Part shown: one piece after another, positions 53,748 through 59,052 of the stretch
Numbering within the stretch: the first letter of the stretch is position 1
How the letters are laid out: each line of letters opens with the position of its first letter
The notes under the pieces: model-generated
Databases searched by the model: none
What the model was told of the DNA's origin: nothing
What the model saw: only the letters and a program-made list of their open reading frames with translations
Position numbers and translations under genes: made by a program
Origin: a virus
Lineage: Duplodnaviria > Caudoviricetes
Reading direction: 5' to 3' (one strand)
DNA: 64,000 bases
IMG/VR virus record: IMGVR_UViG_3300014204_000188
Span: 2,002 to 66,001 of that record

Positions 53748-54071
53748 ATGGAAACAATACATCGCAGAATTCAAACAGAACTAACCAAACAGAAAATTTC
53801 AAAAGCACTTACTGGAAAAAAACATACCCCAGAACATAAACAAAGAATTAGTGAAAGTTTGTTAGGAAAACCTAAAACAAAACAAACCATTCGAAAAATG
53901 AGCTTGGCTAAACGTAACATGTCCGACCTTACTAAATATCGAATGAGTCTAGCTAAACGTGGAAAGAATCATCCTCTGTATGGAATAACCGGCCCAGCCA
54001 ATCCCAGATGGGGAAAAAAGTACCCAAAGAAAATTATTCAGAAAAACTCTTCAGATATATCCATTGTATAG
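53748..54071 (+). CDS. stand-alone NUMOD3-repeat protein
   Basis: GKKHTPEHKQRISES, KTKQTIRKMS, TKYRMSLAKRG..HPLYG, NPRWG. Confidence 0.75.
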   Translation: METIHRRIQTELTKQKISKALTGKKHTPEHKQRISESLLGKPKTKQTIRKMSLAKRNMSDLTKYRMSLAKRGKNHPLYGITGPANPRWGKKYPKKIIQKNSSDISIV

Positions 54072-54274: not shown

Positions 54275-54305
54275 TTTGTTAAAAATCTATTTATATTTAT
54301 ATGTG
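54275..54305 (+). promoter_or_regulatory. possible Bacteroidota-type -33/-7 promoter (TTTG-N19-TATATGTG)
   Basis: One mismatch to TAnnTTTG; lies just upstream of the structured RNA. Confidence 0.3.
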
Positions 54306-54328
54306 TTTAAGTTGTTTGAAATTTTGGA

Positions 54329-54708
54329 AATTTTGAGACGGAAAGAGGAAATCTTCGACAGTCTGGAGTTCTAAAGTGTTTTAACTAACTGATTGAAAGG
54401 GTGTTAAAGTCGAGCCAGATCTCAAAATTGTACCATGAGAAGGCAAATCCGAGTATTAGACCGTTTACGGTTATGCGAATATGTTGATGCCATTTAGTAT
54501 ATGGACAAAGCCTTACGCCAGCAAACCTGGTAGCATTAGAGCGTATCAGTAGGGTGGACATATTATTACGCATAGCAATCGAACTAAATAATACGGTTGG
54601 AAGTTGAAACACAATCCTTTGACTTCTATATATCGCTTGGTAATTTGGGCCAAGCAGTATTGACTACGGCGGACGCTTTCACTTTGGTTCGACTCCAAAG
54701 GTAGCCAC
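54329..54708 (+). ncRNA. large structured non-coding RNA ending in a T-loop tRNA-like domain
   Basis: Multiple long-range helices (e.g. 54329-38/54420-29; 54472-84/54558-74) and TTTGG-TTCGACT-CCAAA arm. Confidence 0.7.
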
Positions 54709-54736
54709 AGTATAAACAATTCTAAAACTTACTGTC

Positions 54737-54931
54737 ATGAACAACACAAGAAGAAAACAAATCAGTGATTTGCTCAGTAAACTGAATGAAATGAAATCAG
54801 AGTTAAAAACTATTCAAAATGATGAACAGAAATACTTTAATAACGTTCCAGAAAACCAACAGGATAGTGTACGTTATTACAATTCAGAATCCATACTAAC
54901 ACAATTGGATGAAGCTTGTTTTTTACTTTGA
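54737..54931 (+). CDS. early hypothetical protein
   Basis: MNNTRRKQI...QNDEQ..FNNVPEN.Q pattern common in phages. Confidence 0.6.
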   Translation: MNNTRRKQISDLLSKLNEMKSELKTIQNDEQKYFNNVPENQQDSVRYYNSESILTQLDEACFLL

Positions 54932-54957
54932 ACATATGATAGAAAATCTCCAGGAAA

Positions 54958-55018
54958 TTATATCATTCCACTGATAAGACTTTAATAGTTGAAACCGGAA
55001 TTTATTCCAGTCTATAAC
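54958..55018 (+). ncRNA. degenerate type I hammerhead ribozyme
   Basis: CTGATAA (G8 to A), stem II GACT/AGTT, GAAAC, stem III with a mismatch, GTC; weak stem I. Confidence 0.5.
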
Positions 55019-55022
55019 ATAT

Positions 55023-55107
55023 GGCTTTGCTCCTCGGGATGATAGCCCCGTGAGAGTCCCGGAACCAGGTTTAGACTTGGATGGTGGTCCGAATCCGCCC
55101 ATTGCCA
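55023..55107 (+). ncRNA. tRNA-like element without D arm
   Basis: Acceptor-like GGCTTTG/CATTGCC+A, T arm GGTGG-TCCGAAT-CCGCC, hairpins CGGGAT/GTCCCG and CCAGGT/ACTTGG. Confidence 0.55.
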
Positions 55108-55131
55108 CTATAAAAACTAAATCTTAATTCA

Positions 55132-55443
55132 ATGAAAACAACATCCACTGAGTTAAACAGCACAGAACTTATTATTCTACAGGCTATTAAACTTGCTCAT
55201 AAAAACGCCGGCGGGGATTTTACTTACGCTGATGAAGTTCTATCAGAAGTAAATCAAATTCTCCTTACAAATCAAACCGCCCAACCCACTCATCTAACTT
55301 ATCCACAAGTTAAAGGATACCTTAGTCAATTATCCCAGAAAGGATATATCTCAATTGACCCCTACGAATTTCATCAAATTAATTTTTGTAAAAAAGCCTT
55401 AGAAATTTATCCAGATTTGGAAAAAACTTGTCAAATTTACTAA
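55132..55443 (+). CDS. winged-helix-like DNA-binding protein
   Basis: LTYPQVKGYLSQLSQKGYISID resembles a wHTH recognition helix and wing. Confidence 0.5.
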   Translation: MKTTSTELNSTELIILQAIKLAHKNAGGDFTYADEVLSEVNQILLTNQTAQPTHLTYPQVKGYLSQLSQKGYISIDPYEFHQINFCKKALEIYPDLEKTCQIY

Positions 55444-55497
55444 GTTACACTGACGAGATTTTATGAATCGAAACCGGAATTCGTTCCGGTCTGTAAC
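55444..55497 (+). ncRNA. type I hammerhead ribozyme
   Basis: GTTACA CTGACGA GATT-ttatg-AATC GAAA CCGGAA-ttcg-TTCCGG TC TGTAAC; predicted cleavage 3' of C55491. Confidence 0.93.
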
Positions 55498-55515
55498 AAA
55501 CTAAATCTTAATATC

Positions 55516-55923
55516 ATGTCAAGTATTAACAAAGAACGGGAAGAATACCGTGAAGATTGTTCCGGTGGAGAAACGACCGGGATGAACAAGACTGATTTAA
55601 AACAAAGTTATTCAAATCATTTGGCTATAAAAGACGTTGATGATGATCCCCGAAAAGAACCCATTCCTAAAGATCAAGACCAAAATCCCAAGGTATCTGA
55701 ATTTCAAAAACTAATTGACCAAGCAATCAAAGCAATCGTGACCTATGAAACCCTGTCTCCTCAGATTGGTTACACTCGAACTTATCAAACAAATGCTATT
55801 CAAGCTGAAAGGTTTATTAGAAGTCTTTCAGTCTATAAATACCATAAAGTTTGGGCCGAAATCCACTCCCACATTGTTTCTTATTACGATAGCCTGGCTC
55901 CTGAACTTAATTCAAAATCTTAA
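55516..55923 (+). CDS. early hypothetical protein
   Basis: ORF with A-rich initiation region. Confidence 0.6.
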   Translation: MSSINKEREEYREDCSGGETTGMNKTDLKQSYSNHLAIKDVDDDPRKEPIPKDQDQNPKVSEFQKLIDQAIKAIVTYETLSPQIGYTRTYQTNAIQAERFIRSLSVYKYHKVWAEIHSHIVSYYDSLAPELNSKS

Positions 55924-56009
55924 AAGTGGAGCTATATATTTTGAAAGTGCTCGATTAATTTGTACTAAACCATAAACGGCTGCCCTATCGGCTACACGGG
56001 GATTGTAAA

Positions 56010-56150
56010 ATGAGATACATTAGACCAAAAAACGAACTTATTGTAAGAGAAAAGAAACTTACAAAGAAGCAGAGAAAAGAAACAGAAGAAAAAGAAGAAT
56101 TTTTGCGTAAAAACCAAAACGGTGTATTTGGTAGTATTTTTTAGAATAAA
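56010..56150 (+). CDS. small charged protein (46 aa)
   Basis: Manually read MRYIRPKNELIVREKK...FGSIFLE*. Confidence 0.5.
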
Positions 56151-56154
56151 ACTA

Positions 56155-56196
56155 ACCCATTTTGGAACTGCCCCGGTTCGATTCCGGAGATGGGTT
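56155..56196 (+). ncRNA. tRNA minihelix-like element (acceptor + T arm)
   Basis: AACCCATT/GATGGGTT stem with CCGG-TTCGATT-CCGG arm; 9-nt linker. Confidence 0.6.
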
Positions 56197-56249
56197 CGAA
56201 CAATAAATTTATCATTTTCAAAAATTAATAATTTTAAATCTTAAACATT

Positions 56250-56549
56250 ATGAACGAAAATTTAGTTTTAAAAATGGATGAAAATCAAGAAACTATTCCC
56301 AGTGTTCTTGGAATTTCTAATGAAAGAGCAAAAGAATTAATAGAATTATGTAGAACGTCTCTCAAAAGTACAGATACTTTTACTGAAAGTATCAAAGAAG
56401 TTTCTGAGAAAACAGAAACGCTTGAGGAATTGGCATTCATTTGTTTTGAACTTGGAATGGTAATCGGTGTTACAAAAGGAATGAGGATAAGCACTAGTCC
56501 GTTAGCTTCATTGGTCCATCAAATGATGCAGGGGGGATCTGAGGAATAA
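56250..56549 (+). CDS. early protein, paralog A
   Basis: Clear similarity to 56644-56892. Confidence 0.7.
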   Translation: MNENLVLKMDENQETIPSVLGISNERAKELIELCRTSLKSTDTFTESIKEVSEKTETLEELAFICFELGMVIGVTKGMRISTSPLASLVHQMMQGGSEE

Positions 56550-56605
56550 GATTTACTGATGAGGCTTCAATAGCCGAAACCCGGAGTGTACTCCGGGTCT
56601 AAATC
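56550..56605 (+). ncRNA. type I hammerhead ribozyme
   Basis: GATTTA CTGATGA GGCT-tcaat-AGCC GAAA CCCGGAG-tgta-CTCCGGG TC TAAATC; predicted cleavage 3' of C56599. Confidence 0.93.
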
Positions 56606-56643
56606 AAAAATTATTTCTTATTTACAAATAAATTTCAAACACC

Positions 56644-56892
56644 ATGGACAAAAATCTAATTTTAAAAACAGACGAAACAAAAGAAAAAATTTCTGAAGTT
56701 CTTGGAATTTCTGATGAAAGAGAACAAAAATTACTTAAAGATGTCGACAAGAGCTTACGGCGAGAAGAAAATATTACTTTAGCTTTAAAAAAAGTAATTG
56801 ATCAAACACAAACTCTGGAAGAAGCTGTTTTTGCCACTTTTCAAATTGGAGCAGAAATTGGATACAATAAAGGTTTTTCTAAATCTTTATGA
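56644..56892 (+). CDS. early protein, paralog B
   Basis: NL.LK.DE..E.I..VLGIS.ER...TLEE..F..F..G..IG..KG shared with 56250. Confidence 0.7.
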   Translation: MDKNLILKTDETKEKISEVLGISDEREQKLLKDVDKSLRREENITLALKKVIDQTQTLEEAVFATFQIGAEIGYNKGFSKSL

Positions 56893-56944
56893 AACTTACT
56901 GACGAGGCTTCAATAGCCGAAACCGGGCTTGCCCGGTCTAAGTT
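56893..56944 (+). ncRNA. type I hammerhead ribozyme
   Basis: AACTTA CTGACGA GGCT-tcaat-AGCC GAAA CCGGG-cttg-CCCGG TC TAAGTT; predicted cleavage 3' of C56938. Confidence 0.93.
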
Positions 56945-56966
56945 AAACTAAAAACAATAAAATATC

Positions 56967-58906
56967 ATGGAAACCAAATTGTTTAAAGTGACATCAAATC
57001 AACATGAAGGTCATTTATTTAAAATAGGAGAAGTAGTTGAATTAGTAACAGAAACATTCCTTTTCAACCGACTAAAACGATACAAAAGTGTTGAAAGTAA
57101 AATGGAACAATACTTATTTCCAGAAGAAATTGAACCTATTAACTCTACACAATTATGAAACCAATTCCAAAAAATATCAAAGCGGCTAAAAAGCTGATTG
57201 AAAAATATCGTGAAATCACGATTGAAGACATGAACTTAAACATACCAGTTAAATATTTAGCAAACACACTTACTGGGTTTGGTTCTTATCAAACCTGTAC
57301 ATTATGTACAAATACCCTTCCGTGGAATACATTGACTCCATCTAATTTGAAACGTCAAATAGCGTGTGATTTATGTATTTATTATGTAAATGAGAACCAC
57401 CGACCCGCGGTTATGTATTGTACCGATCATATAACATATCAAAACATAGTTAATGCTCGAACAAAAAAACAACTACTAAAAGCTTTCAAAGAGCGTGCTG
57501 ATTATATTGAAAAAATATTGATTGATAACAATTGGAAAAATGAACAATAAATGAAAACAATCAAACTAATCTTACAATTACTTATGGCATTCCTTGGAAT
57601 GCTATGTATTTTCTATGGCCATGGATTTCATGAATCCATAATATTCTTTCTTGGAGTAATACTAATCATACCTTTTCTTTACAGAATCATTAAATCATCA
57701 AAATGAAAACCTACCCACGTCCGATTTACATAATTGCTGCTGAAATTAAAGCAGATTGGAAAAATATATGGTATGGTGCTAAACCATATCTACAAGCTAT
57801 GTCTCAACTAGATTCTATTGAAGATACCTACGGCGAATCATCTGCAAAAAGTATTATTTTATACTTCCTTAGTAACGCAGAATATTGGCGAGGAAATACC
57901 GCCCAACGAATCAAGAAAGAGTTAAACACTTTAATCAAATAATCCACTAACTATTAAAACAATACACACAATGTCAAAAAAAATTCGTAAATCAATCCAA
58001 GCTGTAACAGCTGAAATTGAAGCAAAACACCCTATCATTCCAGAACCAAAAATAATAACCAGAACTGTTTTGTCACAGAACTCTACAGAAGCGAAAATGA
58101 TTTTAGCAAAAGCAGAAAAGCCACTGGCTGGCCCAAAGAAACTTGCCGCAGCTATCAAAAACAATGCTCCTAAATCTATTCCAACAACTCACACCGAAAT
58201 GATTGAAAAAGTTATAGGTGCTACTAAGAAAATTCCAATGGCCAAAGAGATTGACCCAGTTATTCTAAAAACAGGACCTTGGGAAGAAATATTACCAAAG
58301 ATCCTGGAAATTACATCTGCCCGTAAATCAAAAATGATCTATACTAAAGGAACAGTTAAAACGCACATCAAGTACAGACAAAACCAGAATGATATTCGTT
58401 TCAACAACTATGATACAGATAAAAACGGTGTTTTTGTTAATCAACAAAAATAACCATTGATTTTTTGGTATTTAAAAAGAAATATCTTTAATTTTATATC
58501 TTTAATTTCTAAGTTTTTAACCTTTAAAAATCAATTGCTTATGAAAACATTCAATTTTCTTCTGGGTTTATGCTTGCTTTGTCTTTTTAGCATGACAATA
58601 ACAGAATCCACAAGTAAACCAACCTGGGATGGAGGACCAGGAATTACCATTGTTACTAATTCTATTATAAACAATGATTTACAACTTCCAACAACGCTCT
58701 CCATTTCCAATCCTGAAGTATCAAATTACACTTTAACTACCAAGAAGGAAACAATGGGATCCGGAGAATTAAGATATCAACCTAATTTTCTATATACTAG
58801 TTACTTTACAAATGATTTAAATTACAATCACTCAAAGAAAACTAATTCGCAGTTAAAACAAAGAAAAGTGAGGTGTTTACTAATCTTTGACTCATTCATT
58901 GTTTAA
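56967..58906 (+). CDS. early hypothetical ORFs (56967-57158, 57155-57550 Cys-rich, 57703-57942, 57971-58453, 58540-58906 signal-peptide-like)
   Basis: ORF track; 57703 has the conserved-looking AKPYLQAM..L.SI.D.YG..SA.SI..YFL.NA..WRG pattern. Confidence 0.55.
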
Positions 58907-58962: not shown

Positions 58963-59052
58963 CGAGAGAATAGTTTAAATCGGTAAAATTAAAAACCAAC
59001 AAATTTTTAGATAGAAGTTCAAATCTTCTTTCTCTCACTAATCATTAATCAC

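Follow-up and report, generated by a model that had tools for sequence, protein, structure and literature searches.

Three intact type I hammerhead ribozymes and a decayed copy at gene junctions in the early region of a phage genome

Described hammerhead clusters and the present locus

Clusters of hammerhead ribozymes flanking small phage genes have been known since 2011, and the locus described here is a well-documented ordinary case of such an arrangement. The nearest known examples are the prophage and phage clusters of Clostridium scindens, Azorhizobium caulinodans and Agrobacterium tumefaciens (PMC3088659). Processing of phage transcripts was proposed as the role of clustered prophage hammerheads by Perreault et al. 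2011 (PMC3088659), who also reported in vitro cleavage at every ribozyme of three clustered arrangements. A 2019 review gives polycistronic processing as a suggested role (PMC6765202), and the transcript-processing reading has been repeated as unproven (PMC6155905, PMC6765202). A previous sequence-only reading of the DNA analyzed here held that phage hammerheads are known and that their function is poorly understood, in agreement with these sources (PMC3088659, PMC6155905, PMC6765202).

The stretch that we analyzed (the window, 64,000 nt) runs from base 2002 to base 66001 of an IMG/VR virus record of 66,001 bp, which is complete and has direct terminal repeats (DTR). [quoted passage not shown] The published cases are mostly prophages of other phyla in which types I, II, and III are mixed (PMC3088659), whereas the hammerheads of the window all belong to a single uniform type I subclass, and their phage has a free, complete DTR genome and a probable Bacteroidota host; a further copy in the window has decayed beside a tRNA-like module. 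The locus leaves knowledge of the ribozyme itself unchanged, and provides a clean, fully annotated example: a complete genome with one relic alongside three intact copies. Only the fusion of the ribozymes to stop codons, the 6-bp stem I with its A caps, and the presence of a decayed copy next to a tRNA mimic go beyond the literature consulted. Our main reading, with a probability of about 0.8, is that HH1-3 are active hammerheads that cut an early polycistronic transcript into gene-length mRNAs.

The window has a G+C content of 33%. A minus-strand structural module extends up to ~53572, beyond which a plus-strand early/replication module begins, and HH1-3 are all on the strand of their flanking genes (Table 1). 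The large terminase is nearest to those of Croceibacter and Cellulophaga phages (34-38% identity), and the host therefore probably belongs to the Flavobacteriia/Bacteroidota. The small proteins encoded around HH1-3 (64, 103, 135, 99, 82, and 63 aa) have no functional assignment in Pfam or PHROGs. No terminator-like sites were found on the plus strand between the hammerheads. The promoter scan covered promoters other than those of the presumed Bacteroidota host, and internal promoters may exist in the operon.

A blastn search of 55100-57200 against cultured phage genomes gave no match, no related loci were found for the 99-aa protein among viral contigs or for the 135-aa protein among metagenomes, and the 3' end of the RNA lying upstream in the operon retrieved L004 as the sole related locus. 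In the helicase relatives L005-L008, either the region or the hammerheads are absent. A 107-aa ORF (53748-54071) consists of NUMOD3 repeats only (Pfam E 2.6e-17). Its PHROG homing-endonuclease matches fall in the interior of longer proteins, and the ORF looks like what is left of a homing endonuclease when the DNA-binding part stands alone, without the nuclease domain.

Table 1. Coordinates of ribozymes, tRNA-like elements, and neighboring genes in the window
Feature	Position	Strand	Description
Non-coding stretch, about 400 nt	54290-54710		Richer in G+C
Hammerhead relic (HH0*)	54970-55013	+	22 bits, R1 model positions 7-48
tRNA-like module	55019-55108	+	Acceptor-like stem, two arms, T-arm GGUGG-UCCGAAU-CCGCC
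103-aa ORF	55132-55443	+	Upstream of HH1; without family match
HH1	55444-55497	+	Intact type I hammerhead; 59.3 bits, E 1.6e-12 (model R1)
ORF downstream of HH1	55516-55923	+	Start codon 55516
Mini tRNA-like element	56150-56203		AACCCAU...CCGG-UUCGAUU-CCGG...AUGGGUU; in gap before ORF 56250-56549
99-aa ORF	56250-56549	+	Upstream of HH2; paralog of ORF 56644-56892
HH2	56550-56605	+	Intact type I hammerhead; 65.6 bits, E 4e-14 (model R1)
82-aa ORF	56644-56892	+	Between HH2 and HH3
HH3	56893-56944	+	Intact type I hammerhead; 64.5 bits, E 7.5e-14 (model R1)
tRNA gene	58964-59038		Rfam 52 bits; 8-nt anticodon loop; 14 nt before SNF2 helicase gene

Three complete hammerheads and their viral class

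Judged by sequence, HH1-3 are genuine hammerheads of type I, and the consensus core is complete in each. Each contains the 5' core strand C3-U4-G5-A6-N7-G8-A9 (CUGACGA in HH1 and HH3, CUGAUGA in HH2), G12-A13-A14, an A15.1-U16.1 pair, and a residue other than G at position 17 (H17), in a GUC cleavage triplet. The helices around the core, a 6-bp stem I, a 4-bp stem II opening with G10.1-C11.1, and a GC-rich stem III of 6-8 bp, have 0 mismatches, and the topology is that of type I, with the 5' and 3' ends held in stem I and with stems II and III closed by loops. HH1 consists of stem I GUUACA/UGUAAC, stem II GAUU-UUAUG-AAUC, GAAA, and stem III ACCGGAA-UUCG-UUCCGGU; C17 is at 55491, and cleavage is predicted between 55491 and 55492 (GUC followed by UGUAAC). 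For HH2 (stem I GAUUUA/UAAAUC, stem II GGCU-UCAAU-AGCC, stem III ACCCGGAG-UGUA-CUCCGGGU), the corresponding C17 is at 56599, with predicted cleavage between 56599 and 56600. HH3 has the same stem II as HH2, stem I AACUUA/UAAGUU, stem III ACCGGG-CUUG-CCCGGU, and C17 at 56938, with cleavage predicted between 56938 and 56939.

A strict descriptor comprising the core, GAA, A15.1-U16.1, H17, and the three stems was run on both strands of the window and matched exactly three times, at HH1-3, whereas 200 dinucleotide-preserving shuffles gave a mean of 0.005 matches per window and a maximum of 1. A loose core-only pattern was uninformative (22 matches versus 14 expected), and the full descriptor was used instead. 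Minimum free energy folding of HH1 and HH3 recovered the three-stem hammerhead. R1, a covariance model derived from 107 hammerheads that lie on other IMG/VR contigs among the matches listed, with the window excluded, matched HH1-3 over its full length (model positions 1-55). In the window the next match was the relic and everything else scored at most 14 bits; the whole 66-kb genome contains no further intact copy by this model, with nothing else above 22 bits. The sequence-only reading had claimed three intact type I hammerheads with the core CUGANGA/GAAA/GUC, a 6-bp stem I, a 4-bp stem II with a 5-nt loop, and stem III caps UUCG, UGUA, and CUUG; the three descriptor matches and R1 scores of 59-66 bits bear this out, and all of these elements are present, the caps in HH1, HH2, and HH3, respectively.

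All three ribozymes carry A(-1), A(+1), and A(+2) around stem I, and stem I, at 6 bp, is two base pairs longer than stem II, which has 4 bp and a 5-nt loop. [quoted passage not shown] A tertiary contact of this kind may form in HH1-3, in which no Watson-Crick pseudoknot was seen by eye.

IMG/VR was searched with a pattern comprising the core, four loop II/stem II positions, and the base of stem III, with stem I left free, and at least 120 contigs matched. Among the matches listed, a perfect 6-bp stem I is present in all 109 distinct raw matches (chance per site, 0.3%), a paired 4-bp stem II in 108, and A at -1 and +1 in 105. In the 107 class members among the matches listed from which R1 was made, a set seeded by a pattern fixing loop II and part of stem III and partly picked for pairing, 99.9% of cells are paired compared with ~35% when the partner is slid; the stem I that the search had not requested, found in 109/109 raw matches, guards against this selection. 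Compensatory changes are seen in 13 of 15 pairs across the same 107 members. Nearly every copy among the matches listed has a stem I of 6 bp and a stem II of 4 bp with a 5-nt loop, and unpaired A residues are found at -1 in 158, at +1 in 158, and at +2 in 136 of 164 copies. HH1-3 agree with every regularity of the class. Two to five copies occur in 35 of the 119 loci among the matches listed, each locus being ~10 kb or less. Some loci (L013, L089, L038, and L091) have 4-5 hammerheads inside ~3 kb.

The class is largely missed by Rfam at its gathering cut-offs. The Rfam hammerhead covariance search that the sequence-only reading had put forward as a check left HH1-3 under the cut-offs: no hammerhead was reported in the window by Rfam 15 at gathering thresholds. 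RF00163 (Hammerhead_1, type I) has the core and topology in common with HH1-3, with stem I open and stems II and III capped; its model (cut-off 34 bits) did not report HH1-3 at gathering score and was not listed for the window. Permissive scans gave sub-threshold RF03152 and RF00008 matches only. The best family was RF03152 (RAGATH-1 hammerhead), whose scores of 32.7, 27.2, and 25.3 bits fall short of its 56.3-bit cut-off. RF03152 shares with HH1-3 stem I UUA/CUGAUGAG, CGAAAC, a long GC stem III, and GUC-UAA, whereas its minimal stem II and extra 5' hairpin are absent from HH1-3. When eight related or class loci with more than 20 class hammerheads were scanned, one hammerhead passed (L132, RF00163, 39.1 versus 34 bits), and the miss is therefore a property of how the Rfam models are made up, not of the HH1-3 sequences. 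Rfam gathering cut-offs thus overlook most members of an abundant viral class, which matters for automatic annotation.

Gene junctions and their turnover in relatives

Each of HH1-3 begins on the base right after the stop codon of the upstream ORF, so that the cap A(-1) is the final base of that stop codon: TAA for HH1 (cap A at 55443, ORF 55132-55443), TAA for HH2 (ORF 56250-56549), and TGA for HH3 (ORF 56644-56892). The next start codons, at 55516, 56644, and 56967, follow the ribozyme ends by 18, 38, and 22 nt. Among the matches listed, 148 of 161 class members are preceded by an open frame of 50 codons or more that reaches the ribozyme or enters it. The last base of its stop codon falls at -1 in 25 members, at +1 in 20, within bases 4-6 of stem I in 24, within the core UGA in 30, and within loop II in about 24, and the next ORF begins a median of 21 nt past stem I. 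The class has testable regularities: the ribozyme is joined directly to the upstream ORF, whose stop codon it often supplies, stem I has 6 bp in nearly every copy and is capped by A residues, and a start codon follows ~20 nt downstream.

The flanking genes themselves are not constant. The 292 class-flanking ORFs among the matches listed (median 83-87 aa) fall into 203 clusters, of which the largest has 5 members. The small proteins flanking HH1-3 have no relatives among these 292 ORFs, and a shared family of ribozyme-associated genes was therefore rejected.

The stop codon geometry raises the alternative that cleavage is gated by translation, with the terminating ribosome unfolding stem I and cutting reporting that the upstream ORF had been translated. 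The stop codons ending at -1 in HH1-3, and in the class at -1, at +1, and in stem I, the core UGA, and loop II, would fit such coupling. However, tight gene packing together with stop triplets within the consensus would yield the same geometry, and the conserved A(-1) may serve a tertiary contact and not the stop codon; we regard gating as unlikely.

The ORFs preceding HH2 (99 aa) and HH3 (82 aa) are paralogous (44% identity, E 4e-22), which argues that HH2 and HH3 arose by tandem duplication of a gene plus its ribozyme. Between the two units, the coding DNA is identical at 142 of 234 positions (61%) and the downstream leaders at 42%, whereas the core, stem II, and GAAAC of the ribozymes are identical at 25 of 26 positions, the sole difference being at the free N7. 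Stems I and III of HH2 and HH3 differ by paired changes. Including the copies in the related loci L131 and L132, compensatory changes are found in 13 of 18 pairs among five related copies. The sequence-only reading had pointed to stems that differ in sequence and still pair, as compensatory variation within one genome; the compensation stands, and its placing within one genome holds in part only, given the old tandem duplication.

At the positions equivalent to those of HH3 and HH1, L131 has an intact hammerhead before the homolog of the 63-aa gene, and L132 has one directly after the homolog of the 103-aa gene. Both have other stem sequences with pairing kept. From these comparisons the motif of HH1-3 is under purifying selection. 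It could be supposed that the motifs are inherited passengers, selfish or neutral and without a present role for the phage, and their patchy presence among relatives and the existence of decayed copies are what such elements would leave. This reading is very unlikely given the conservation of the HH2/HH3 core against diverged coding and leader DNA, the compensatory changes by which orthologous copies retain pairing, and the striking uniformity of the class across at least 120 contigs.

The junction occupied by HH1 shows turnover. A hammerhead follows the homologs of the 103-aa ORF in L004/L131 as well as in L132, and the L004/L131 copy has decayed, with G12A and two stem mismatches. No hammerhead is present at this junction in L133-L135, and L130 (476-530) has only a GC-rich hairpin (GGGCCGC-CUCG-CGCGGCC); the junction element appears to have been swapped. 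Because the junction is a hairpin in L130, empty in L133-L135, and decayed in L004/L131, the hammerhead is dispensable on an evolutionary timescale. A single gene junction offers a natural comparison of an intact ribozyme, a decayed ribozyme with a tRNA-like module, and a plain hairpin.

Proposed transcript processing and the tRNA-like elements

If HH1-3 process the early transcript as we propose, each motif of ~54 nt would, after passage of RNA polymerase, fold and cut itself 3' of GUC, at the predicted sites 55491/2, 56599/600, and 56938/9. Since the topology is type I, the whole ribozyme would remain on the upstream fragment, which would carry the stop codon and the entire ribozyme body and would end in the GC-rich stem III hairpin and a 2',3'-cyclic phosphate. 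The RNA beyond the cut would start with a 5'-OH, followed by the six stem I bases, AA, a short leader, and the next start codon. The RNAs between the sites would be about 1108 nt and 339 nt long, the latter carrying the 82-aa ORF freed by the cuts at HH2 and HH3. The resulting gene-length mRNAs would then be free to differ in stability and translation; we infer cleavage in vivo, co-transcription of the genes, and an effect on mRNA fate.

The ends left by such cleavage could in principle be rejoined, the 339-nt and 1108-nt segments being circularized or spliced in the manner of retrozymes and viroid-like RNAs. After type I cleavage the 2',3'-cyclic phosphate end is on the ribozyme body, an arrangement suited to ligation (discussed in PMC3088659), and HH2 and HH3, together with their genes, form a tandem repeat. 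However, the stem I strands of neighboring copies are incompatible (AACUUA with UAAAUC gives 4 of 6 pairs), RtcB was not found in the phage, the genome has no further copies of the units, and spliced or circular products were sought for clustered phage hammerheads and none were found (Perreault et al., PMC3088659). The stem I mismatch, the lack of RtcB, and the outcome reported by Perreault et al. make ligation extremely improbable, and circularization was ruled out as the main reading by the first two of these.

A fourth copy had been overlooked in the sequence-only reading. This relic has the core CUGAUAA, in which G8A breaks the consensus, a G-U wobble as the first stem II pair, a C.A mismatch in stem III, and an unpaired 5' strand of stem I, and folding gives no hammerhead (z -0.79). 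It lies directly 5' of the tRNA-like module, whose acceptor-like stem has two U.U mismatches and which includes an arm with a conserved 8-nt loop (AUGAUAGC) and a variable-arm-like hairpin. ARAGORN made no tRNA call on the module. The module is conserved in L004/L131, with its counterpart at L004 3499-3588, and 8 of 24 pairs are compensatory between the window and that lineage, a comparison of two sequences.

Further tRNA-like elements occur along the operon. The non-coding stretch at the start of the series, nearly identical in L004 and L131 and without an Rfam match even at E<=5, ends (54650-54710) in a tRNA-like acceptor/T-arm minihelix (UGACUAC...CUUUGG-UUCGACU-CCAAAG-GUAGCCA), and the mini element sits in a type of junction used elsewhere in the operon by hammerheads. 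All junctions in 54708-56967 bear either a hammerhead or a tRNA-like element, in the order tRNA-like end 54650-54710, relic plus module 54970-55108, HH1, mini element, HH2, and HH3. The tRNA gene farther downstream was called by ARAGORN as an undetermined tRNA with the four-base anticodon 'aaca'.

In mitochondrial tRNA punctuation and in MALAT1/mascRNA, tRNA-shaped elements serve as processing signals. By analogy only, the tRNA-like elements of the operon, which alternate with ribozymes, could mark cleavage sites between cistrons; unlike tRNA punctuation, hammerheads act without any protein. An extension of the processing reading, which does not replace it, is that hammerheads and anticodon-less tRNA-like modules can stand in for each other as processing signals between cistrons, with self-cleavage or host RNase P/Z segmenting the early transcript from the roughly 385-nt RNA at 54329-54708 to ~57000. 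Consistent with this are the presence of one of the two kinds of element at each junction, the tRNA gene that precedes the helicase gene, and the compensatory changes through which the module holds its fold. Each of the two hammerheads that abut the module carries its own inactivating core mutation, G8A in the window and G12A in L004/L131, whereas all five that do not abut it are intact. However, the 2/2 versus 0/5 distribution comes from two lineages only, both relics may share an older loss of function, and recognition of the modules by RNase P is a supposition. We regard the interchangeability of the two kinds of signal as a tentative proposal.

We are similarly cautious about the narrower suggestion that a hammerhead 5' of the tRNA-like module was made redundant by host RNase P and decayed independently in two lineages, which is possible but on balance doubtful. 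If true, nature would have supplied genetic evidence that phage hammerheads simply serve to make an RNA end at a gene boundary. Among the matches listed, the other class loci have no hammerhead near a tRNA or T-arm motif: ARAGORN found no same-strand tRNA within 300 nt of class hammerheads, and a T-arm motif search confined hammerhead-T-arm adjacency to the window lineage. The idea of decay beside a tRNA mimic is therefore not generalizable.

A short sequence motif recurs in the same interval as these elements. Copies of AAAUCUUAA lie on the plus strand at 55119, 55503, 55915, and 56236, and the motif is present in L004 and L131 too. Window-wide it occurs 7 times versus 3.7 expected, which is not significant, and four of the copies cluster at 55119-56244. 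Three copies are placed 13-14 nt before the start codons of early genes and the fourth overlaps the stop codon of ORF 55516-55923; in this phage lineage, AAAUCUUAA may serve as a signal in the leader or for translation.
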